Shown: piece by piece, positions 27,171-60,395 of the stretch | Numbering within the stretch: the stretch's first letter is position 1 | How the letters are laid out: each line of letters starts with the position of its first letter | From: Alphaproteobacteria bacterium GM202ARS2 | GTDB lineage: Bacteria; Pseudomonadota; Alphaproteobacteria; GM7ARS4 | NCBI GenBank assembly: GCA_014323835.1 | Contig: JACONH010000001.1 | Span: 91,009 to 155,008 of the forward strand | Length of the DNA: 64,000 nt | Direction: 5' to 3' | The notes under the pieces: model-generated | The model's database searches: none | What the model saw: only the letters and a program-made list of their open reading frames with translations | What the model was told of the DNA's origin: nothing | Translations under genes and position numbers: made by a program

Positions 27171-27188
27171 ATGTTTCACGTGAAACAT
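27171..27188. promoter_or_regulatory. Perfect 18-bp palindrome ATGTTTCACGTGAAACAT (isolated copy 1), followed by TTGACT
   Basis: Read directly from the sequence. Lies 16 bp from the tRNA-Gly 5' end, in the divergent tRNA-Gly/tuf-ybaN intergenic region. Confidence 0.6.
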
Positions 27189-27269: not shown

Positions 27270-27287
27270 ATGTTTCACGTGAAACAT
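27270..27287. promoter_or_regulatory. Perfect 18-bp palindrome ATGTTTCACGTGAAACAT (isolated copy 2), preceded by TAGTATATA
   Basis: Read directly from the sequence. Same 18-mer as at 27171 and as in the 60153-60374 array. Confidence 0.6.
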
Positions 27288-30396: not shown

Positions 30397-32115
30397 ATGC
30401 GTCACGTTCTTTCTGACATACTGGCTCTGCGTCTGCACATGCGTCACATCATCGCGCCGCCCGATTTTAATCGTTGGCGCGTGCCGCCCGCCTCCATTGC
30501 CATTCATCTGTGCATTGGCTCGGTCTACGCCTGGAGTCTCTTCAATCCGCCCCTCTCCCGCGCCCTCGGCGTCGTTGCCCCTGCTGCCGATGACTGGCCC
30601 CTCGCCCACGTAGTATGGATTTTCTCCGTGGCTATCGTCAGTTTCGGTCTCGCCGCCGCTTTCGCCGGTAAATGGCTCGAAGACGTAGGGCCCCGCATGG
30701 TCGGTGTTGTCGCCGCCTGTCTATGGGGCGGCGGCTTTATCATCGGCGGATTTGGCATCCTCTATCACCAACTCTGGTTGATTTATCTCGGCTACGGCGT
30801 GTGTGGCGGATGCGGACTCGGCTTAGGTTACGTCTCCCCCGTTAGCACCTTGCTCCGTTGGTTCCCCGACAGACGCGGCATGGCAACCGGCATGGCTATC
30901 ATGGGATTCGGCGGCGGGGCTATCATCGGCGCACCCGCCATAGAAGCCCTGCTCGCCTTCTATCAACACATGCCAACCTATCTCGGCACTGCCGACACCC
31001 TAACCCTCAGCACCATCGAAGGCATCCGCTACGCTCAAACTTCCAACGGCACCCTCACAGAAGTCGTTCTCATCGGTGCCAAAGAAGCCGCCCATCTATC
31101 CACTGCCGTTGCTCCTGTTGCTCCCGGGGCGTACGTTGTCGGCACAGGCTCGACCGGGGCAGCAGCAACATTCTTTACCCTCGGAGTCGTCTATTTCTTT
31201 GTTATGGTAATTGCTGCGTTCTCCTACCGCGTGCCCGCGCAAGGATGGCAGCCGAAAAACTGGCAGCCCCCTGACGAAAGTCACGCCAAAAAACGCATGA
31301 TAACCAGCGAGCACGTCCACATCGACCAAGCCCTCAAAACGCCGCAGTTTTATCTGCTGTGGGTTTTGCTGTGCTTTAATGTATCCGCCGGCATCGGCGT
31401 CATAGGTGTCGCCAAAACCATGATGAGCGAAATCTTCGGCACAACCCTGCCCCATATTGTCGATGCTGCCTTCACCGCCCAATACGTCCTGATGATTAGT
31501 GTCTTTAATATGCTCGGACGATTCTTCTGGGCGAGTGCCTCCGACTATATAGGCCGTAAAGTCACGTATATGATTTTTCTTACCCTCGGTATTATCCTCT
31601 ATCTGTCGATTCCTTATACCGCCGAGCAAGTCAGCGTATCGCCCCATATTCAGTGGCTGATGATGTTCTACGCCGCCACAATGATAATCTTTACCATGTA
31701 TGGCGGCGGCTTTGCGACCATCCCCGCCTATCTTGCCGACATTTTCGGCACACGCTACGTAGGGGGCATTCATGGTAGGATACTGACTGCCTTAAGCGTC
31801 GCAAGTGTCCTAGGGCCCGTTGCTATCACCCAGCTGCGTGAACATTCGCGTATTCAAGCCATTGAGTCGCTGGCAACACACATCGACCCACGTCTGTTCT
31901 TACAGACCTTCGGGCAATCTATCGACCATCTAGGGATTCTCATCGAGGCAAAGACTGTCACCATTGCCTCGCTGATGGATATTGCCCCCATCGGCACCAT
32001 TGACCCGTCGCCGACTCTCTATAATACGACCATGTACGTTATGGCGTGTCTGTTGGCACTGGCGTGGCTCGCTAATATGCTGGTGCGCCCCGTGCACGCC
32101 AAGCACCACATGTAA
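30397..32115 (+). CDS. MFS transporter, oxalate/formate antiporter (OFA)-like family, paralogue 1 of 3
   Basis: 572 aa, 12 predicted TM segments. RWFPDRRGMATGMAIMGFGGG matches the OFA family. Confidence 0.8.
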   Translation: MRHVLSDILALRLHMRHIIAPPDFNRWRVPPASIAIHLCIGSVYAWSLFNPPLSRALGVVAPAADDWPLAHVVWIFSVAIVSFGLAAAFAGKWLEDVGPRMVGVVAACLWGGGFIIGGFGILYHQLWLIYLGYGVCGGCGLGLGYVSPVSTLLRWFPDRRGMATGMAIMGFGGGAIIGAPAIEALLAFYQHMPTYLGTADTLTLSTIEGIRYAQTSNGTLTEVVLIGAKEAAHLSTAVAPVAPGAYVVGTGSTGAAATFFTLGVVYFFVMVIAAFSYRVPAQGWQPKNWQPPDESHAKKRMITSEHVHIDQALKTPQFYLLWVLLCFNVSAGIGVIGVAKTMMSEIFGTTLPHIVDAAFTAQYVLMISVFNMLGRFFWASASDYIGRKVTYMIFLTLGIILYLSIPYTAEQVSVSPHIQWLMMFYAATMIIFTMYGGGFATIPAYLADIFGTRYVGGIHGRILTALSVASVLGPVAITQLREHSRIQAIESLATHIDPRLFLQTFGQSIDHLGILIEAKTVTIASLMDIAPIGTIDPSPTLYNTTMYVMACLLALAWLANMLVRPVHAKHHM

Positions 32116-32139
32116 TTTATTTTTTAGTGTTGCCCCATC

Positions 32140-33858
32140 ATGCGTCAGGTTTTTTCTGATATTTTGGCTCTGCGCCTTCATAAGCGTCACATTATTGCGC
32201 CGCCCGACTTTAATCGTTGGTGGGTGCCGCCTGCGTCTATCGCTATTCACCTGTGCATTGGCTCGGTTTATGCCTGGAGTCTGTTTAATCCGCCCCTCGC
32301 CCGTGCCCTTGGCGTTGTTGCCCCCGCCGCTGGCGACTGGGAGCTTGCCAGTATCGTCTGGGTCTTTTCTGTTGCCATCGTCTTTCAAGGTCTCGCGGCT
32401 GCTTGTGTCGGCAAGTGGCTCGAAGACGTGGGGCCCCGTATGGTCGGCGTTGTCGCCGCCTGTCTGTGGGGCGGCGGCTTTATCGTTGGCGGTTTGGGCA
32501 TACTCTATCACCAGCTCTGGCTGGTGTATCTCGGCTATGGCGTTCTAGGCGGGTGCGGAATCGGCTTGGGCTATATCTCGCCCGTCAGTATCTTGCTCCG
32601 TTGGTTCCCCGACAGACGCGGCATGGCTACAGGCATGGCTATCATGGGATTCGGCGGCGGCGCTATCATCGGCGCACCCGCCATAGAAGCCCTGCTCGCC
32701 TTCTATCAACAGATACCCACCTATCTCGGTGCTGCTGACACTCTGACCCTCAGCACGATAGAAGGGGTGCGTTACGTCCAAAACACCAGTGTCACCCTAA
32801 CAGAAGTCGTCCTTATCGGTGCCAAAGAAGCGTCTCAACTAGCAACACCCGCTCAGCCCGTTGCCCCCGGGGTGTATGTTGTCGGCACAGGTTCGACCGG
32901 CACGGCCGCGACATTCTTCACGCTTGGCGTTGTCTATTTCATCGTTATGATTATTGCGGCATTTGCTTACCGTGTGCCCGCTAAGGGCTGGCTGCCGAAA
33001 AACTGGCAGCCCCCTGACGAGAGTCAGGCAAAAAAACGCATGATGACGACACAGCACGTCCACATCGACCAAGCCATGAAAACACAGCAGTTCTATCTGT
33101 TGTGGCTCGTGGTGTGCTTGAATGTCACCGCAGGTATCGGCATTTTGGGCGTCGCTAAAACCATGATGAGCGAAATCTTCGGCACAACCCTGCCCCATAT
33201 TGTCGATGCTGCCTTTACCGCACAGTATGTCCTGATGATTAGCGTCTTTAACATGCTCGGACGATTCTTCTGGGCAAGTGCCTCCGACTATATCGGACGC
33301 AAAATCACCTACACGATTTTCTGTGTGCTCGGTATTTTCCTTTATCTGTCGATTCCTTATACGGCCCAGCACGTCAGCGCATCCCCGCATGTCCAGTGGC
33401 TGGTGATGTTCTATGCGGTAACCATGATGATTTTCACCATGTATGGCGGCAGCTTAGCAGCCATCCCCGCTTATCTTGCTGACATTTTTGGCACACGTTA
33501 CGTGGGGGGCATCCACGGCAGACTGCTCACTGCCCTCAGTGCTGGGGGTGTCTTGGGGCCCGTTGCCATCACCCAGCTGCGCGAATACACCCGTATTCAA
33601 TCTATAGAGTCTCTTGTTGCACGCATCGACCCGCAGCTGTTTCAACAAACATTCGGACAAACCATCGACCAACTGCCTCTTCTTATCGAAGCCCACACTG
33701 TGACCATTGCTGCCCTGATGGACATTGCCCCCATAGGCACCATTGATCCATCGCCGACTCTCTATAATACGACCATGTATGTTATGGCTTGTCTGTTGGC
33801 AGTCGCGTGGCTCGCCAACACGCTGGTGCGCCCTGTTCACACCAAACACCACATGTAA
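32140..33858 (+). CDS. MFS transporter, OFA-like family, paralogue 2 of 3
   Basis: Same length (572 aa) as paralogue 1 and near-identical to it. Confidence 0.8.
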   Translation: MRQVFSDILALRLHKRHIIAPPDFNRWWVPPASIAIHLCIGSVYAWSLFNPPLARALGVVAPAAGDWELASIVWVFSVAIVFQGLAAACVGKWLEDVGPRMVGVVAACLWGGGFIVGGLGILYHQLWLVYLGYGVLGGCGIGLGYISPVSILLRWFPDRRGMATGMAIMGFGGGAIIGAPAIEALLAFYQQIPTYLGAADTLTLSTIEGVRYVQNTSVTLTEVVLIGAKEASQLATPAQPVAPGVYVVGTGSTGTAATFFTLGVVYFIVMIIAAFAYRVPAKGWLPKNWQPPDESQAKKRMMTTQHVHIDQAMKTQQFYLLWLVVCLNVTAGIGILGVAKTMMSEIFGTTLPHIVDAAFTAQYVLMISVFNMLGRFFWASASDYIGRKITYTIFCVLGIFLYLSIPYTAQHVSASPHVQWLVMFYAVTMMIFTMYGGSLAAIPAYLADIFGTRYVGGIHGRLLTALSAGGVLGPVAITQLREYTRIQSIESLVARIDPQLFQQTFGQTIDQLPLLIEAHTVTIAALMDIAPIGTIDPSPTLYNTTMYVMACLLAVAWLANTLVRPVHTKHHM

Positions 33859-33929
33859 TTGACGGATAGCTCTTGTCAATGGGTGTGGTTGTCTTTACAC
33901 TTGCTTTATTTCTTTAGGAGTCCTGCGTT

Positions 33930-35648
33930 ATGCGTCAAATTTTTGCTGATATTTTAGCTCTGCGCCTTCATAAGCGTTATATCGTAGCGCCGCCCGACTT
34001 TAATCGTTGGTGGGTGCCGCCTGCGTCCATTGCCATTCATCTGTGTATTGGCTCGGTTTATGCGTGGAGTCTGTTTAATCCGCCCTTGTCACGTGCCCTC
34101 GGGGTCGTTGCTCCTGCTGCCAGCGATTGGCCCTTGGCGGATGTGGTGTGGATTTTCTCCGTTGCCATTGTGTGTTTGGGCTTTGCTGCTGCGTTTGCCG
34201 GTAAATGGCTCGAAGAAGTGGGGCCCCGTATGGTCGGCGTTGTCGCCGCATGCCTGTGGGGCGGCGGCTTTATTATTGGCGGATTTGGTATCCTCTATCA
34301 CCAGTTGTGGCTGGTGTATCTCGGCTACGGCGTTTTTGGCGGCTGCGGGCTCGGCTTGGGGTACGTCTCCCCTGTCAGCACCCTGATTCGCTGGTTCCCC
34401 GACAGGCGCGGCATGGCAACAGGCATGGCTATCATGGGATTCGGCGGCGGCGCCATGATTGGCGCACCATCCATCGAGGCTCTGCTCGCCTTCTATCAAC
34501 ATATACCCACGTATCTCGGCACAACCGATACCTTGACCCTCAGCACCATCGAAGGAATCCGCTACGCACAAAGTGCGAGTGGCACCCTAACGGAAGTCGT
34601 CCTCATCGGCGCCAAAGAAGCCGCTAACTTGACAACACCCCTTCAAACTGTCGCCCCGGGGGCTTATGTTGTCGGTACAGGCTCTACCGGGGCGGCGGCG
34701 ACATTCTTTACCTTCGGGGTCGTCTATTTCATTATCATGATTATCGCCGCGTTCTCGTATCGTGTGCCAGCAGAAGGCTGGCAGCCGAAAAATTGGCAGC
34801 CCCCTGACGAAAGTCAGGCAAAAAAACGCATGATGACGACACAGCACGTCCACATCGACCAAGCCCTCAAAACGCCGCAGTTCTATCTGTTATGGATTGT
34901 GCTGTGCTTTAACGTATCGGCTGGCATTGGCGTGCTCGGCGTTGCCAAGACCATGATGAGCGAAATCTTCGGCACAACCCTGCCCCATATTGTCGATGCT
35001 GCCTTTACCGCGCAGTATGTTTTGATGATTAGCGTCTTTAATATGGTTGGACGAGTCTTCTGGGCAAGCACCTCCGACTATATCGGACGTAAAGCCACGT
35101 ATATGATTTTCTTTACGCTCGGTATCCTTCTTTATTTGTCGATTCCCTATACGGCACAGCAAGTCAGCGTATCGCCGCATATCCAGTGGTTGGTGATGTT
35201 TTATGCTGCCACCATGATTATTTTTACGATGTATGGCGGTGGTTTTGCGACTATTCCTGCGTATCTTGCCGACATTTTTGGCACCCGTTACGTAGGCGGC
35301 ATCCACGGCAGATTGCTGACAGCGTGGAGCATGGCTGGCGTGCTGGGGCCTGTTGCGATAACGCAACTGCGCGAGCACACCCGTATTCAAGCCATAGAGT
35401 CGCTGGCAGAACGCATCGACCCCCAGCTGTTCTTGCAGACTTTTGGCCAAGCTATCGACCAGCTGCCCATTCTTATTGAGGCAAAAACTGTCACCATTGC
35501 TTCGCTGATGGAGATTGTGCCGATAGGGACGATTGACCCGTCGCCGACTCTCTATAATACGACGATGTATGCGATGGCTGGTTTGCTGGCGTTGGCTTGG
35601 ATAGCGAATGTTCTTGTGCGTCCGGTGCATGCCAAGCACCACATGTAA
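33930..35648 (+). CDS. MFS transporter, OFA-like family, paralogue 3 of 3
   Basis: 572 aa paralogue. Putative RBS TTAGGAG upstream. Confidence 0.8.
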   Translation: MRQIFADILALRLHKRYIVAPPDFNRWWVPPASIAIHLCIGSVYAWSLFNPPLSRALGVVAPAASDWPLADVVWIFSVAIVCLGFAAAFAGKWLEEVGPRMVGVVAACLWGGGFIIGGFGILYHQLWLVYLGYGVFGGCGLGLGYVSPVSTLIRWFPDRRGMATGMAIMGFGGGAMIGAPSIEALLAFYQHIPTYLGTTDTLTLSTIEGIRYAQSASGTLTEVVLIGAKEAANLTTPLQTVAPGAYVVGTGSTGAAATFFTFGVVYFIIMIIAAFSYRVPAEGWQPKNWQPPDESQAKKRMMTTQHVHIDQALKTPQFYLLWIVLCFNVSAGIGVLGVAKTMMSEIFGTTLPHIVDAAFTAQYVLMISVFNMVGRVFWASTSDYIGRKATYMIFFTLGILLYLSIPYTAQQVSVSPHIQWLVMFYAATMIIFTMYGGGFATIPAYLADIFGTRYVGGIHGRLLTAWSMAGVLGPVAITQLREHTRIQAIESLAERIDPQLFLQTFGQAIDQLPILIEAKTVTIASLMEIVPIGTIDPSPTLYNTTMYAMAGLLALAWIANVLVRPVHAKHHM

Positions 35649-46937: not shown

Positions 46938-49689
<2,752 letters not shown>

Positions 49690-49752
49690 TTATCTGTTGA
49701 CGGCGACCCCTTTTGTAACTTAAAGTAGGAAAAAAGGAGGCCCTATTCGTAT

Positions 49753-49792
49753 CGAGCCAGCGTCACCCCTAAAAAATGGCGGCGCTGGCTCG
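49753..49792. other. 10-bp perfect inverted repeat (CGAGCCAGCG ... CGCTGGCTCG) with a 20-nt loop, in the intergenic region between the His-rich protein gene and thiC
   Basis: Read directly from the sequence. There is no clear U-tract on either strand, so a terminator function is uncertain. Confidence 0.4.
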
Positions 49793-49830
49793 ATGTATGT
49801 TCACTGTTTGGCACTGTTTATGGTCGCTAC

Positions 49831-51132
49831 CTAGCGTTCATAGTCAAACGTGTATTCTAGGGTGCCACCGATGCGTTTGCTTATCTCGTTCTCGTCATTT
49901 CTGATTTGCTGATAGCCGAGATGTAGACGCACCTGTTTGCCGACCCTATACCCTGCTGACATTCGAAAGGAGCCTTCGTTGTTGCCGCTTTGCCGATTAA
50001 CGTGGGTGTACTGCACCGCATAGAGCCAACGTTTGTCATAAAGCTGCAAAGCAATGGTGGTGAATTTGTGGTCGTTATTCGCCTCACCATCAAGAGAATC
50101 GATGCCAGCATACTCGAACACGATATGTCCTCTCGTTGCCCGAGAAAAACGATGCCCGTAATCTAAGGATAGCGACACGCTGTCCTCATCTTCGGCATCG
50201 GCGTCTTTTTCTGCCTTAGCTTGTTTGCTGTAGCCCAATCGGTAGCCGAGCTTACCAAAGACGTTTTCACCGCCTAGAGACAAAGCAAAAGAGCTCAAAT
50301 CCTCCGTATTGGCGGGTCCCCCATCGTTGAGACTACGATGCCCTCTTCGATAAAAGAGCGACTCACTAAACAAGGTTGTATCCGCAAAAAATGCCGATGC
50401 CTCGATGTCATGGTTGCCGAGATTGCGCGCGCCATCAAAAGACAACTTACCCCCTACGCCAATACGCTCACGGATTTCATATTCATGAACCGGCACATAA
50501 CCCGTAGCACCAACAAAACGATCTGGCGAAAAACCCACCGTCGGCGTAAATTTACCCACATACACCGCATACGTATCGTCATAACTATAAGTCAACCTTA
50601 AAGCCGCCAAAGAAACGGGATGATCTTGGAAAAAACTGTTGCGTGCACGTTCTTCTCCATGCTCGTCCTCATCTTCATGCCCGTGTTCATCGCCGTCTTC
50701 ATCACCATCTTCGTGGTGCTCTTCCTCTTCATGGTCGTTGCCACCACCATGCGCATGATCATGCCCTTGCGCAGCACCATCGAGAAAAATCTCGCCATCG
50801 ATAGACAAACGATGCTTGTTTTTCTCCCATAAACGCGCACCCCAATCCACATGACCATGAAGATAAAAGTCAACAATACGATCCTCTTCATGAGGAGCCG
50901 CCGTCACACCATCAAAGTGACCATTGAAATGACCATGAATAAATACAGCCTCGTCACCATGCCCTCCATGCCCCCCCCCGTGTCCATGGTCATCATGTCC
51001 CCCATGCCCCCCCCCATGGTCATGTCCCCCGTGTCCATGATTATCGTGTCCGCCTCCTGCTAAAACGGGCGTAGCCATAAGCCCCAACGTCACGCCTGCG
51101 AGCATGACAAAGTAACGCACAAAATAGCGCAT
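49831..51132 (-). CDS. Secreted His-rich/acidic metal-binding protein with probable beta-rich C-terminal domain
   Basis: The start MRYFVRYFVMLAGVTLGLMATPVLA (ATG 51130-51132, putative RBS GAGGAG) is a signal peptide. It is followed by HGHGGHDHGGGHGGHDDHGHGGGHGGHG and HEEEEHHEDGDEDGDEHGHEDEDEHGEE tracts. The C-terminal ~250 aa alternate in an OMP-like pattern. Confidence 0.7.
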   Translation of the reverse strand: MRYFVRYFVMLAGVTLGLMATPVLAGGGHDNHGHGGHDHGGGHGGHDDHGHGGGHGGHGDEAVFIHGHFNGHFDGVTAAPHEEDRIVDFYLHGHVDWGARLWEKNKHRLSIDGEIFLDGAAQGHDHAHGGGNDHEEEEHHEDGDEDGDEHGHEDEDEHGEERARNSFFQDHPVSLAALRLTYSYDDTYAVYVGKFTPTVGFSPDRFVGATGYVPVHEYEIRERIGVGGKLSFDGARNLGNHDIEASAFFADTTLFSESLFYRRGHRSLNDGGPANTEDLSSFALSLGGENVFGKLGYRLGYSKQAKAEKDADAEDEDSVSLSLDYGHRFSRATRGHIVFEYAGIDSLDGEANNDHKFTTIALQLYDKRWLYAVQYTHVNRQSGNNEGSFRMSAGYRVGKQVRLHLGYQQIRNDENEISKRIGGTLEYTFDYER

Positions 51133-51224
51133 GAGCGTATCTCCTCTATGTATGTAATAAGCCCCCTCTTCCAATCAATGAGTCTATCACAAATACTACA
51201 TGTATGCAAGTGTTTTTTTTTGAA

Positions 51225-51242
51225 AATACTATATATAGTATT
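51225..51242. promoter_or_regulatory. Perfect 18-bp palindrome AATACTATATATAGTATT, ~95 bp upstream of the His-rich protein start. An additional half-site AATACTA lies at 51192-51198
   Basis: Read directly from the sequence. Candidate operator for a dimeric (possibly metal-responsive) regulator. Confidence 0.55.
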
Positions 51243-51285
51243 GTAAGGTGAACATTCTTTTATTGTGCGTGTCGGTTCTCACGCT

Positions 51286-51471
51286 TTATTCGCCGCCGCC
51301 ACCGCCGTCGCCCCCACCGTCGCCACCGTCGTCGCCATCCCCATCGCCGTTGTGACCGTTATCTCCTCCCCATGCGTTTGCTATGATTTTACGCCCTAAA
51401 GCGAAGCCTAAAATCAGCACCAAAAAAATGAAAAATAATCCATGATTCCATCTCCTCTTTATGGGAATCAA
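51286..51471 (-). CDS. Hypothetical 61-aa single-TM peptide with Gly/Asp-rich tail (GDGDGDDGGDGGGDGGGGGE)
   Basis: ORF with a hydrophobic segment LFFIFLVLILGFALG. The tail is low-complexity (GCC/GTC repeats), so it could be spurious. Confidence 0.3.
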   Translation of the reverse strand: MIPIKRRWNHGLFFIFLVLILGFALGRKIIANAWGGDNGHNGDGDGDDGGDGGGDGGGGGE

Positions 51472-51498
51472 GCCCTCTTCTTAACACAAAAATTCATA

Positions 51499-52125
51499 TC
51501 ATGGGGCAGGATAGATATACAAGTTTTTGTGTTGCAGTTGCCATATTGTTTGTCCTAGGCGTGTTGCCTGCTCTTTGTCGTGTGTGCTGAAGAGGATAGC
51601 ACATCCTTGTGCGTGGCATTGTTGAATCAGGGCTTCTGTTCTTTGTGTGCTTGCTTCATCGAGGTGTGTTGTTGGTTCATCGAGCAACAGCAGCTGGGGC
51701 GAGACCGCCCATGCCCGAGCAATGGCAAGGCGTTGTGCTTGCCCACTCGACAGAACACCAGCGTTTGCCGTCGCATATGATTCGAGCCCAGCGACCGCCA
51801 AAGCGTCATAGGCTCGAGTCTGACGTAAATGGGCAGGATAGTTGCACAGGTGCAAAACAAAAAGAATATTCTGCAACGCCGATATATTCTGTAACAAAGC
51901 GGGCTTGGCAAAAACGAACGTCTGGCGCAGCCCTTTGTCTTTGATAAGGGTGCCACCACTCGGCAGTAACAATCCATAGATAAGCCGTAGCAACAGGGTT
52001 TTTCCAGCCCCATTGGCACCGAGCAACGCCACACAGGCTTTTTTCTCTAGAGTGCCGCACACGCCTTCCAACACCTGCGTGCCACCAACACAGAGAGACA
52101 CATCTTTCAGCGTAACACAAGCCAT
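51499..52125 (-). CDS. tupC: ABC transporter ATP-binding protein (TupC-like)
   Basis: Walker A GANGAGKT, signature LSSGQAQR, Walker B LLLDEPT; 208 aa. Confidence 0.75.
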   Translation of the reverse strand: MACVTLKDVSLCVGGTQVLEGVCGTLEKKACVALLGANGAGKTLLLRLIYGLLLPSGGTLIKDKGLRQTFVFAKPALLQNISALQNILFVLHLCNYPAHLRQTRAYDALAVAGLESYATANAGVLSSGQAQRLAIARAWAVSPQLLLLDEPTTHLDEASTQRTEALIQQCHAQGCAILFSTHDKEQATRLGQTIWQLQHKNLYIYPAP

Positions 52126-52126
52126 A

Positions 52127-52825
52127 CTAACGCCTTTGCAGACGCAACGTGCTTGACGTTATCAGCACCGACAGCAACAGCAACACAAAACCTAAAGAAA
52201 AAGCCACAGGCAAATCGCCTTTGCTGGTTTCAAGAGCAATAGCCGTTGTCATAACTCGAGTAGCATGCTCGATATTGCCGCCAACAATCATGACGCCGCC
52301 GACCTCCGATAGCCCTCGACTGAGTGCCGTCAACAGCGCCGTCAACAAAGCCATCCTCGCATCATAGAGAAAATAACACGCCATCAAAAAAGGCTTGTCG
52401 CCGCCAGGCTTATTACCACCAAAAGACAACCATTGCTCTTGGTCGGTCGCCCAGCGGTCGTATAAGGTCTGTCTCGTCATAATCGTCAATAACGGAGTCA
52501 TAATAACCACCTGCACAATCACCATAGCACTTGGCGTATACAACAGCGATAAAATGCCGAGTATCCCTTGCTTCGATAGTAGCGTATAGATGAGCAACCC
52601 TGCCAAAACCGGGGGCAAGCCGGTCAAGCTCTGCATGAGTATACGTAGAGCCCCTTGCAAAGGAAACGAGCCAATTGCCAGCACCGCCCCCAAAGGCAGA
52701 GCCAGCAAAGCCGACAGCAGAAGCGCGTAGCCGCTGACAAACAGCGACAAACCGATAATCTCAAAAAGCTGGCTATCGAAAGACACCAGTAACACGAAGG
52801 CTTGATAGATGGCGTCCCACCACAT
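52127..52825 (-). CDS. tupB: ABC transporter permease (TupB/ModB-like). Probable start MWWDAIY, overlapping the hisZ-like stop as TAATG
   Basis: Binding-protein-dependent transport permease fold with 6 predicted TM segments. Adjacent to the ABC ATPase. Confidence 0.7.
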   Translation of the reverse strand: MWWDAIYQAFVLLVSFDSQLFEIIGLSLFVSGYALLLSALLALPLGAVLAIGSFPLQGALRILMQSLTGLPPVLAGLLIYTLLSKQGILGILSLLYTPSAMVIVQVVIMTPLLTIMTRQTLYDRWATDQEQWLSFGGNKPGGDKPFLMACYFLYDARMALLTALLTALSRGLSEVGGVMIVGGNIEHATRVMTTAIALETSKGDLPVAFSLGFVLLLLSVLITSSTLRLQRR

Positions 52826-53901
52826 TACAGCACCTTCTCGATGGGCAACGGGCAACTATCGACGAGCGTATCGACGAACAACGAACAGCCCACCGCGGGT
52901 TCGGCATCGAGGGCACCAGCCGAGCGCAGACGCTGCGGCGCACGAGACGTCCGCCGTGTACCCGTCGGCAGACGCTGCACAGACGACGTCGTTGCACTGG
53001 CATTGTATTGTCCGCCACGCCCCAGCTCTCGCCCTTGCACCCGAGTCAGATATGAAAATGTAACACCGCTATGATAGGCAAACCCGTGATTTTCTAAAGG
53101 GTCAAGAACAACAGAGGCATGTTTGATGCTTTTAATGATACGTTCTGCTGTCTCGATGAACTGCTCGAGAGGACGCTTTGCTGGCAACGGCAACGAAAGG
53201 CTCTGCAGGCGAGTCACACTAACCTCGGCATCGCCCGCAGCTTCAATGAGCTGCTGAAAGGTCGGCGCGCCCTTACCGCTGAGTTGAGCAATAGCCGTCT
53301 TATCCTTGCTGTTTAAGGCGTGCCGCAAAGGGACAGCAACGTCGGGAGCAATCTCAAAATGCTCGAAAAGAGCCTGCGTCAACGGCGGCATATTCAAGTC
53401 AAGAGTCATCTCAGGGATCGACAGAGCATGCAAGCCCTCGAGGGCGAGAATCATCACCTCGATGTCGGCATTGGCGTCGTCGTTGCCGAACCGCTCGATA
53501 CCGACTTGCCCATACTGACGTGCGGGATTAAGCACACTGCCGTGGGCACACAAGGCTTCGCCCTGATACGAAAGACGTAAGGGGCGAGGATGATGCGCCA
53601 GAGATGTGCGCGCAATGCGAGCAACCTGCGTGGTAAAGTCATTGCGAATCAGCATCAAATGATTCGACACCGGATCCATCAGCTTGAGGCGGTTATCATC
53701 GCTTCCCCCTGCTGCTCCTGTTGTTTGCACCGCATGATGTGTCTCGAACTCCATCAGCGACGGCTTAACCCGAGCATAGCCTGCCGATTGAAAGTGCTTC
53801 ATCAGGCGCGCCACCACCGCAGCTTCGTAGTCTGCCTGTGGGGGTAATACATCTCGGAATCCCGATGGTAAAATGCCTTCTTTTTTTGTTGCCATCATCA
53901 T
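52825..53901 (-). CDS. hisZ: HisZ/HisS-like class II aaRS paralogue (ATP phosphoribosyltransferase regulatory subunit-like). No hisG is present in the window
   Basis: Start MMMATKKEGILPSGFRDVLP (HisS/HisZ N-terminal motif). The catalytic core lacks an anticodon-binding domain. The long upstream extension of the listed ORF overlaps serC. Confidence 0.55.
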   Translation of the reverse strand: MMMATKKEGILPSGFRDVLPPQADYEAAVVARLMKHFQSAGYARVKPSLMEFETHHAVQTTGAAGGSDDNRLKLMDPVSNHLMLIRNDFTTQVARIARTSLAHHPRPLRLSYQGEALCAHGSVLNPARQYGQVGIERFGNDDANADIEVMILALEGLHALSIPEMTLDLNMPPLTQALFEHFEIAPDVAVPLRHALNSKDKTAIAQLSGKGAPTFQQLIEAAGDAEVSVTRLQSLSLPLPAKRPLEQFIETAERIIKSIKHASVVLDPLENHGFAYHSGVTFSYLTRVQGRELGRGGQYNASATTSSVQRLPTGTRRTSRAPQRLRSAGALDAEPAVGCSLFVDTLVDSCPLPIEKVL

Positions 53902-55031
53902 GCCTGTTTGTTGATTTGCGCATACCCCCACGTCAGCCACTGACAAAGCCTCTGGAGGTCGTCTGTTTCCACGGTGGGCCCTGTCCAGATACGCAATCCG
54001 CACGGTGCCTGAGGGTGCGATTGAATATCGTAAGCTGCCCCCTGCTGTGCCAATAAGGCACACAGTGCCTGCACTCGTGCCTCCGAGTTCTCCTCATCGG
54101 TCAACCGCAACGTCAAAGGTGCCGGCGGACGATGGGCTGCCTCAGGCACAAGAAAGTCAACCCACGGACATGCCGACACCCAATCACACATAAGGCGATG
54201 ATTGTCCCACGCCTTGCTCGCCAGAGAAGCAACCCCGCCCTGCTTTTGTGCCCAGTCCAGACACCAACGTAAATCCTCCAACAGCAACAAGGACGTGGAA
54301 TTGATGGGTTGCATGCGTAACGTAGCATGCTCGTCCGTCAACGACAAAAGGTGCGGAGCCGCCTTTGTCGCTGGTGGGCGCGCCGCCAGACGACGTTGAG
54401 CCTTCTCAGACAAGACCAACCAGCCTAAGAAGGCTTCACAGCCTAACGCTTTTTGCAAGGAAAAAGCAACAACGTCCAGCTGCTCCCACGGCAGAGGGTG
54501 CATGAACACCACTGAGGTCGCATCACAAAACACCAGCCCATCGGCTGGTCGCTCGCCAAAGGGAAGGCTCTGACCTATCCACGCCCCTGCCGTTGTGCCA
54601 TTCCAAGCAAAAAGCACATCCTCCTGCGTCATGTCCTGACAATTCGGCACCTGACCATAATCGGCATGCCGCACCGACAGTTTGTCGCCAACCAGCATGG
54701 CAGCGATGTTCGCCCACAGCTTGCCGAAGTGCTCCCAGACCAAAGCACAGACCCCATAGCGTGGCTCGAGAAGAGCCCATAAAGCCGACTCCATAGCACC
54801 GCTCGCTGAACCAACCATCGGCACTAAACGATGACCGGGCGGTATCATCAGCAATTCACGTAAAAGGGCGCGGGCTGAACGCAAACGAGAAACTGCCTCA
54901 CCCGTGCGATGATAACGCCCCAAAAGCGATACATCCAAAGACGACAAACGCCACGATGACGGCTTCACCGCAGGGCCCGAAGCAAAGGAGGGATGACGAG
55001 GCTTATGCCAAGGACGACCAACCATCACCAA
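53898..55031 (-). CDS. serC: Phosphoserine aminotransferase (class V aminotransferase); start ambiguous
   Basis: HPSFASGPAVKP resembles the SerC N-terminus (FNFSSGPA). PLP-fold blocks present. Confidence 0.7.
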   Translation of the reverse strand: MVMVGRPWHKPRHPSFASGPAVKPSSWRLSSLDVSLLGRYHRTGEAVSRLRSARALLRELLMIPPGHRLVPMVGSASGAMESALWALLEPRYGVCALVWEHFGKLWANIAAMLVGDKLSVRHADYGQVPNCQDMTQEDVLFAWNGTTAGAWIGQSLPFGERPADGLVFCDATSVVFMHPLPWEQLDVVAFSLQKALGCEAFLGWLVLSEKAQRRLAARPPATKAAPHLLSLTDEHATLRMQPINSTSLLLLEDLRWCLDWAQKQGGVASLASKAWDNHRLMCDWVSACPWVDFLVPEAAHRPPAPLTLRLTDEENSEARVQALCALLAQQGAAYDIQSHPQAPCGLRIWTGPTVETDDLQRLCQWLTWGYAQINKQA

Positions 55032-60149: not shown

Positions 60150-60152
60150 AAA

Positions 60153-60374
60153 ATGTTTCACGTGAAACATCGCGCATAAAAAAAATTGTTTCGCGCGAAA
60201 CATCGCGCATAAAAAAAATTGTTTCACGTGAAACATTGTGACAGAAAAAAAATTGTTTCTCGTGAAACATTTTGACAGGACAATAAAAATTGTTTCACGT
60301 GAAACATCGCGCGTAAAAAAAATTGTTTCTCGTGAAACATCGCGCATAAAAAAAAATTGTTTCACGTGAAACAT
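60153..60374. repeat. Seven tandem units (period 33-37 bp) of the 18-bp palindrome [A/T]TGTTTC[A/G/T]CG[T/C]GAAACAT plus an A7-9-containing spacer. They fill the whole manC-fcl intergenic region
   Basis: Unit starts 60153, 60186, 60219, 60253, 60290, 60323, 60357. The palindrome is perfect in copies 1, 3, 5 and 7. Copy 2 has a CGCGCG centre. Copies 4 and 6 have CTCGTG. The spacers are CGCGCAT-A(n)-T or T(G)TGACAG-A(n). Confidence 0.95.
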
Positions 60375-60395
60375 TTTGACGGGAGAAGTTTGGGC

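Follow-up and report, generated by a model that had tools for sequence, protein, structure and literature searches.

Can an outer-membrane porin be dedicated to the uptake of a single metal, and is this the role of a histidine-rich protein encoded by Alphaproteobacteria bacterium GM202ARS2? The question is raised by a gene on the minus strand (49831-51132) of a 64,000-nucleotide (64-kb) stretch of DNA, hereafter the window, from this sponge-associated methylotroph, which has a 1.83-Mb genome and belongs to the proposed order Methylospongiales (PMC7313196). Our analysis favors a zinc-uptake porin under the control of the zinc repressor Zur. The zinc role of the window copy rests on orthology, and we therefore hold this reading with moderate confidence. 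Because the relatives of the gene, known from dozens of marine bacteria, lie beside zinc-import genes behind a Zur site, the porin is probably a dedicated zinc entry channel of a kind so far undescribed.

Predicted structure of the GM202ARS2 protein

The open reading frame (ORF) recognized in the initial annotation is borne out by public gene calls, which give the same 433-aa product, identical (100%) to hypothetical protein GDA50_00810 of Alphaproteobacteria bacterium GM202ARS2. The gene comprises 433 codons plus a stop, and a Shine-Dalgarno sequence (GAGGAG) lies 8 nt 5' of the ATG. Histidine accounts for 36 of the 433 residues (8.3%) compared with 2.99% across the 32 other ORFs in the window (P = 6e-8). 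A signal peptide (aa 1-25; 51058-51132, minus strand), also proposed earlier, is visible by inspection as MRYFVRYFVMLAGVTLGLMATPVLA followed by GGGHD. It has an n-region with two Arg and a hydrophobic core of 14 aa, followed by VLA and Gly, as expected of a Sec-type signal, with cleavage predicted between VLA and GGG. Homologues align at this site with PVYA followed by AGGHDH, and AlphaFold2 places a helix at aa 2-24. The mature protein would begin with a Gly/His tract (aa 26-60; 50953-51057, minus strand) containing 11 His, 18 Gly, and 5 Asp in 35 aa (His enrichment P = 4e-9); a His-Gly region of ~90 aa had been suggested, and the pure tract is only ~35 aa long. The second block described at that stage, made up of His, Asp, and Glu, is indeed present (aa 121-166; 50635-50772, minus strand), with 9 His and 20 Asp/Glu in 46 aa, and opens with a conserved GHDHAHG motif.

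The AlphaFold2 model contains 16 β-strands within aa 63-432, with predicted local distance difference test (pLDDT) values of 80-90 in the barrel and below 50 at aa 2-59, 121-166, 202-219, and 260-275. The prediction is thus a membrane barrel rather than a soluble periplasmic fold. The initial annotation had noted a pattern reminiscent of outer-membrane β-strands in the C-terminal ~250 aa; an outer-membrane β-barrel is supported, but it spans aa 63-432, with the His/Asp/Glu block inserted between strands 3 and 4. Strands 1-3 (aa 63-117; 50782-50946, minus strand) carry polar residues at alternate positions, namely H66, H68, N70, H72, and D74 in strand 1 and H92, H94, and D96 in strand 2. Since hydrophobic residues lie between them, these polar side chains should face the lumen. 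Strands 4-16 (aa 173-432; 49837-50616, minus strand) include the family-wide loop motif DGGxxNTE (aa 270-277). Turns of 2-6 residues alternate with long loops, as in classical porins. By analogy with porin topology, the Gly/His tract, modeled as a disordered tail ahead of strand 1, would be on the periplasmic side of the membrane, and the His/Asp/Glu tract, modeled as the long loop L2 between strands 3 and 4, would be extracellular. A second model, of a homologue linked to zinc-import (znu) genes (P0019), agrees in having 16 strands and in both disordered tracts, its L2 loop being disordered and His/Glu-rich.

Comparison of the query model with the PDB by Foldseek gave the Rhodobacter blasticus porin (5prn, 8prn), OmpU, Omp32, OmpF, and OmpC as top matches, with E values of 3e-11 to 1e-9, a probability of 1.00, and target-normalized template modeling (TM) scores of 0.6-0.69. 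The sequence-level evidence is weak but points the same way. A PDB profile search identified OmpK35 and PhoE at E = 3e-4. The Pfam Porin_4 model matches the query at aa 268-414 with 23.1 bits, below the cut-off of 27, and matches 10 of 16 family members (E ≤ 0.01). A C-terminal aromatic residue serves as a signal for outer-membrane insertion; the protein ends in EYTFDYER, two residues past the aromatic residue, and most homologues end in F. Taken jointly with the zinc-linked clade described below, these data lead us to favor, to a moderate degree, a passive outer-membrane diffusion channel with the classical 16-strand porin fold. The earlier suggestion of something other than a simple porin holds in part, as the protein is a porin by fold and is apparently specialized for metal.

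A His-rich clade within the porin family

A word-indexed search returned 25 homologues with 29-42% identity, nearly all of them metagenomic, and a full profile search returned 949 clusters (50% identity) at E ≤ 1e-3, 421 of which were found at E ≤ 1e-30. The public names of family members are only "hypothetical protein" or "porin". The majority of the family is His-poor (1-3% His) and a minority is His-rich. Masking of the tracts leaves the query with 35% identity to His-rich and 28% to His-poor members, and average-linkage clustering into two groups placed the query with the 34 His-rich sequences and apart from the 39 His-poor ones, with no errors. Five discrete histidines, H66, H92, H94, H124, and H126, are kept in 97-100% of the His-rich clade and in 0% of the His-poor paralogues. 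The clade also has a GGHDH-type motif directly after the signal peptide, and its L2 loop opens with a GHxHxHG motif that leads into an acidic/His run. The two tract sites are shared by Alpha- and Gammaproteobacteria, in proteins of 30-36% identity. Judged from these alignments, both tracts and the discrete barrel histidines are conserved only within a coherent His-rich clade, and the search for homologues that had been suggested at the outset therefore does not portray the tracts as a lineage-specific artefact.

Further His-rich segments were observed in relatives. The homologue P0022 (L001, 10001-11413, in a znu operon) has a third His/Asp/Glu insertion of ~100 aa in a later loop, and several family representatives have His-rich C-terminal tails (HDGHVH, HSGHNH), so that His tracts occur at several positions and on both predicted faces of the barrel. 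The His-poor majority, with hundreds of clusters, is found in Alphaproteobacteria, Sneathiella and Micavibrio among them (L034-L084, P0036-P0174), and its members share a near-invariant loop motif, DGGxSNTE, together with D74, K194, R223, and H241 (query numbering).

Zinc-import genes and Zur sites beside the relatives

A genome scan limited to one genome per species provided 80 further loci, from SAR116, Rhodospirillaceae, Thalassobaculaceae, Nisaea, Sneathiella, gammaproteobacterial metagenome-assembled genomes, Thiothrix, and others. After removal of two duplicate loci the comparison set consisted of 82 loci, 36 His-rich and 46 His-poor. An exact Zur box, GTTATNNNATAAC, is located no more than 200 bp upstream of the porin's own start in 33 of 36 His-rich loci compared with 1 of 46 His-poor loci (Fisher P = 2.5e-18). 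The genes znuA, zur, or znuB are adjacent in 31 of 36 His-rich loci and in 1 of 46 His-poor loci (Fisher P = 2.9e-16). In the His-rich clade the box lies 32-105 bp ahead of the ATG, mostly 32-65 bp, and is found even where the porin follows znuB as the final gene; the box also occurs, without a znu neighbor, in three loci of Sneathiella (L021, L025, and L032). Gene order varies: on the P0022 contig znuA diverges from zur-znuC-znuB-porin, on three P0019 contigs it diverges from porin-zur, and an arrangement with znuA diverging from porin-znuCB is also seen among the relatives. The consensus of the box in the clade is GTAATGTTATAATATAACATTAC, the box also being written GTTATGTTATAAC, and it agrees with Zur sites that were defined by experiment in Caulobacter, for example GATGTTATATCATAACAAT (PMC4176598). 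Two loci depart from the pattern. L083, the locus of a His-poor paralogue in Sneathiella sp., has an exact Zur box upstream, and L051, a borderline member with 4.3% His, has neither the Zur box nor znu genes.

By its genomic context, the His-rich clade in other proteobacteria is part of a Zur-controlled zinc-import locus. The metal role proposed in the initial annotation for the GM202ARS2 protein thereby gains a direction, as the comparative context points firmly to metal acquisition and specifically to zinc. The same comparison bears on the simplest alternative, an ordinary general porin whose His tracts are neutral low-complexity expansions with no metal role. At the DNA level the tracts are tandem repeats that vary in length, they are disordered in both models, and the fold is that of general porins, all as this explanation would have it. 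Neutral expansion does not, however, account for tracts that recur at the same two sites in such divergent proteins, for discrete histidines that lie outside the repeats and are absent in the paralogues, or for a His-richness that predicts the Zur box and znu adjacency at P < 1e-15. We consider this explanation very unlikely, and the zinc-uptake porin is retained as the preferred reading.

Regulation and sequence make-up of the window gene

Several points weigh against a zinc role for the window copy itself. The exact Zur box GTTATNNNATAAC is absent from the 64 kb by pattern search, and a Zur matrix reaches at best 7.3 bits in the window and -9.3 in the porin upstream region, compared with 18.4-38 bits for true sites. 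A tblastn search of the 64-kb window with ZnuA, Zur, ZnuB, and ZnuC from L001 gave only a match to a generic ATP-binding cassette (ABC) ATPase. With no Zur box or znu genes in the window, zinc regulation in GM202ARS2 is unproven. Support for zinc is at the level of the clade, where the evidence for family members is genomic and comes entirely from sequence and models. The alignments behind both models are shallow, with 15-16 sequences (16 for the query model), and the clustering of histidines toward the lumen is deduced from strand parity only. His-rich tracts bind Ni, Co, and Cu too. Zn2+ already passes through general porins, and whether a dedicated channel is needed is a matter of argument and not a finding.

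The region upstream of the porin gene, 153 bp in length, has a candidate operator of its own. It holds a perfect 18-bp palindrome, AATACTATATATAGTATT (51225-51242), centered ~100 bp upstream of the ATG, which is unique in the window even when up to 3 mismatches are allowed; 0.22 perfect 18-bp palindromes would be expected per window. Its half-site, ATACTAT, is similar to the Zur half-site, ATGTTAT, with a spacing one base shorter. The arms, ATAC/GTAT and TACT/AGTA, resemble the operator arms of FrmR and RcnR (PMC5146963). The type I operators of CsoR/RcnR regulators consist of AT-rich inverted arms around a G/C tract of 3-8 bp (PMC5146963), and the center of the palindrome, TATATA, has no G/C tract. 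Assignment as a CsoR/RcnR/FrmR operator was rejected, as this defining element is missing. Among the matches listed for the 16-mer ATACTATATATAGTAT in metagenomes, the contigs were unrelated and none came from the source sample. An A9 run (T9 on the plus strand; 51213-51221) separates the palindrome from a putative promoter, TTGCAT (51204-51209), 17 nt, and TAGACT (51181-51186), which was placed by eye and should be read as a guess, since a consensus promoter scan called none upstream. An Rfam search of 47000-54500 found no structured RNA and no metal or thiamine pyrophosphate (TPP) riboswitch.

These features would also be compatible with a different metal. In this alternative the protein is an envelope metal buffer or a channel for Ni, Co, or Cu in GM202ARS2, and the gene has been re-wired from Zur to another sensor, possibly of the CsoR/RcnR type, with the expanded Gly/His tract resembling nickel-storage proteins. 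The absence of a Zur box upstream of the window gene, the unique palindrome with its FrmR/RcnR-like arms (PMC5146963), and a Gly/His tract that is tandem-expanded beyond those of the relatives all fit such a change. However, the palindrome has no G/C tract at its center, the defining element of type I sites, no regulator gene was identified, all informative relatives are tied to zinc genes, and the query retains the barrel histidines specific to the zinc-linked clade. Overall, another metal seems unlikely. Within the zinc-uptake reading, we propose that the window gene has moved away from the znu genes and, having no Zur box, may be served by a different palindromic operator.

Both His tracts of the window copy are expanded by tandem duplication. 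Tandem Repeats Finder identified a 36-bp unit in 2.3 copies (50955-51036) that builds the Gly/His tract, and 18-bp and 12-bp repeats at 50649-50712 in the DNA of the His/Asp/Glu tract. Inside the 36-bp repeat are two G9 runs (C9 on the plus strand at 50971-50979 and 51007-51015). The gene could accordingly encode a phase-variable surface protein of a host-associated bacterium, with the G9 runs and the A9 run in the promoter region switching expression by slipped-strand mispairing, a possibility that is compatible with a zinc role. The two G9 runs are the sole G or C homopolymers of at least 8 nt in the 64 kb, and the reduced 1.83-Mb genome, the type III secretion system, and the sponge habitat suit such a lifestyle (PMC7313196). 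On the other hand, the G9 runs encode Gly-Gly-Gly within the duplicated 36-bp unit and so count as one event, and the same protein is found in both public assemblies. From the sequence, the homopolymer runs allow phase variation but do not show it, and as an explanation of the gene we regard it as quite unlikely.

Proposed mechanism and comparison with known systems

If the zinc-uptake reading is correct, the porin would operate as follows. Under zinc scarcity repression would be lifted and the porin made together with ZnuABC, as the genomic context in the relatives suggests. The disordered His/Asp/Glu loop L2, at the cell-surface mouth of the channel, may capture and concentrate Zn2+. Residues H66, H72, D74, H92, H94, H124, and H126, in strands 1-2 and the base of L2, would then line the channel as a ligand ladder or binding site, a step suggested by residue parity together with clade-specific conservation. 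On the periplasmic side the N-terminal His tail may take the ion and hand it to ZnuA, the high affinity of which would drive the net flux. The protein has no TonB box and no plug domain, and transport across the outer membrane would thus proceed without energy input.

The query shares its signal peptide, its barrel, and its best structural matches with the classical 16-strand porins (Rhodobacter blasticus porin, OmpF/OmpC/PhoE, Omp32, and OmpU; Porin_4). It differs from them in falling below the Pfam cut-off, in having its own His tail, His/acidic L2 loop, and clade-specific barrel histidines, and in having relatives that are controlled by a Zur box and located in znu loci. A ladder in a passive porin has a counterpart in OprP, where an arginine ladder along the channel selects phosphate without energy input. 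By analogy, the proposed principle would be the same, with His, Asp, and Glu of the query acting as ligands for a cation. PcoB and CopB combine an outer-membrane barrel with an N-terminal region that is disordered and binds metal, and the query resembles them in this pairing of barrel and disordered N-terminus, whereas the query fold matches 16-strand porins and the context of its relatives is zinc import and not copper resistance. Identity with PcoB/CopB was rejected, as the Pfam CopB model gave no match at E ≤ 0.1.

In the case of ZnuD, a His/Asp-rich surface loop captures zinc. ZnuD of Neisseria meningitidis is a Zur-regulated outer-membrane zinc receptor serving ZnuABC (PMC2895646; PMC4176598), and it has in common with the role proposed here the outer-membrane location, the Zur regulon, and the service to ZnuABC. 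However, it is TonB-dependent and has 22 strands and a plug, whereas the query, with its 16 strands, lacks both a plug and a TonB box, and passive diffusion is proposed. Neither Pfam Plug nor TonB_dep_Rec matched the query, and a TonB-dependent receptor of the ZnuD type was rejected on this basis and on that of the 16-strand model. A porin that is induced by zinc starvation and by zur deletion and that assists ZnuABC is known in Mycobacterium smegmatis, namely MspD (PMC13098993). MspD, a mycobacterial outer-membrane protein of the MspA family, has a different fold and is not homologous to the query, and the paper mentions no histidine (PMC13098993). Caulobacter zrpW was considered as a related Zur-regulated transporter and rejected, being an unrelated six-helix inner-membrane protein (PMC4176598).

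For the passage of zinc across the Gram-negative outer membrane the literature names two routes only, porins without specificity and TonB-dependent receptors, of which ZnuD is an example (PMC4176598; PMC3323870). No description of a Zur-linked His-rich porin in Gram-negatives was found in the openly searchable literature, subscription-only papers being outside the scope of the search. The crossing of this membrane by zinc is an acknowledged gap, and the His-rich porin clade offers a third route. Such a route is of relevance to zinc-poor oceans and to host-associated bacteria, and if the proposed role is correct, the protein would be a rare cation-specific porin, in a clade that has cultured carriers, among them Sneathiella chungangensis KCTC 32476 (WP_161340352.1) and Endothiovibrio diazotrophicus (WP_459868771.1). 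A broader generalization, which we put forward only tentatively, is that the His-rich clade may constitute an unrecognized class of Zur-controlled, zinc-selective passive porins with a His/carboxylate ladder and disordered metal-capturing tracts on both membrane faces, of which the window copy would be a re-wired and maybe phase-variable member. Such a class would account for the passage of scarce zinc across the outer membrane in numerous marine members of the Alpha- and Gammaproteobacteria (SAR116, Thalassobaculaceae, Nisaea, Sneathiella, Thiothrix, and others) with no TonB-dependent receptor involved.

Neighboring genes and other features of the window

The initial annotation noted a small ORF and genes named tupCB upstream of the porin gene. 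Their positions are as it gave them. The mini-ORF (51286-51471, minus strand) encodes 61 aa when read from a TTG and 45 aa from an internal start in the Joint Genome Institute (JGI) gene call. The DNA that starts right behind the stop codon of the ATPase gene and takes in the mini-ORF can be aligned with the leader of the porin gene, its ribosome-binding site and ATG, the codons of its signal peptide, and its Gly-rich tract. The local alignment between the mini-ORF and the porin scores 20, compared with 8.3 ± 1.3 for shuffled sequences (maximum 16 of 2000) and a maximum of 15 among 3162 real window segments. A 1-nt indel shifts the old ATG out of frame, and Asp and Gly occur where the porin has His and Gly. 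Because of this alignment to the 5' end of the porin gene, the indel, and the replacement of His by Asp, the mini-ORF is, by sequence comparison, the decayed product of a partial tandem duplication that copied the leader and 5' end of the porin gene itself.

Next to it are genes for an ABC ATPase (51499-52125, minus strand) and a TupB-like permease (52127-52855, minus strand), given here as context only. Tup-type systems import oxyanions. The permease scores 131.6 bits against NCBIfam TupB, for which the cut-off is 320, and 193 against the generic ABC_perm1 model. The TupA model, with a cut-off of 400, gives 193 bits to a TupA-like binding protein 4 kb away. Judged by these scores, which lie below the equivalog cut-offs, the ABC genes are Tup-like only, and the specific name tupCB is not upheld. 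Neither the mini-ORF nor the Tup-like ABC genes were seen in any of the 84 related loci, and they were rejected as conserved partners. Of the metal module envisaged initially, zinc acquisition is thus suggested by comparative context, and a module formed with these neighbors is not. The TupB-like permease ORF and a HisZ-like ORF (52825-54063) share ~30 bp at the start of the former (52825-52855), and the JGI calls shorten each. Directly downstream of the porin gene lies thiC, and the 190 bp upstream of thiC (49642-49830) matched no Rfam family at E ≤ 1.

Two further features were noted elsewhere in the window. A second palindrome family, (A)TGTTTCACGTGAAACA(T), forms an array at 60150-60375, between a mannose-1-phosphate guanylyltransferase gene and the next gene, and two further copies are located upstream of tuf (27171-27188 and 27270-27287). 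The array consists of ~7 tandem units of ~33 bp, each made up of the palindrome, then TCGCGCAT, and then an A8 run, and may represent either an array of operators or an extragenic repeat element. At 30397-35648 on the plus strand are three tandem paralogous genes, each encoding exactly 572 aa and all matching MFS_1.

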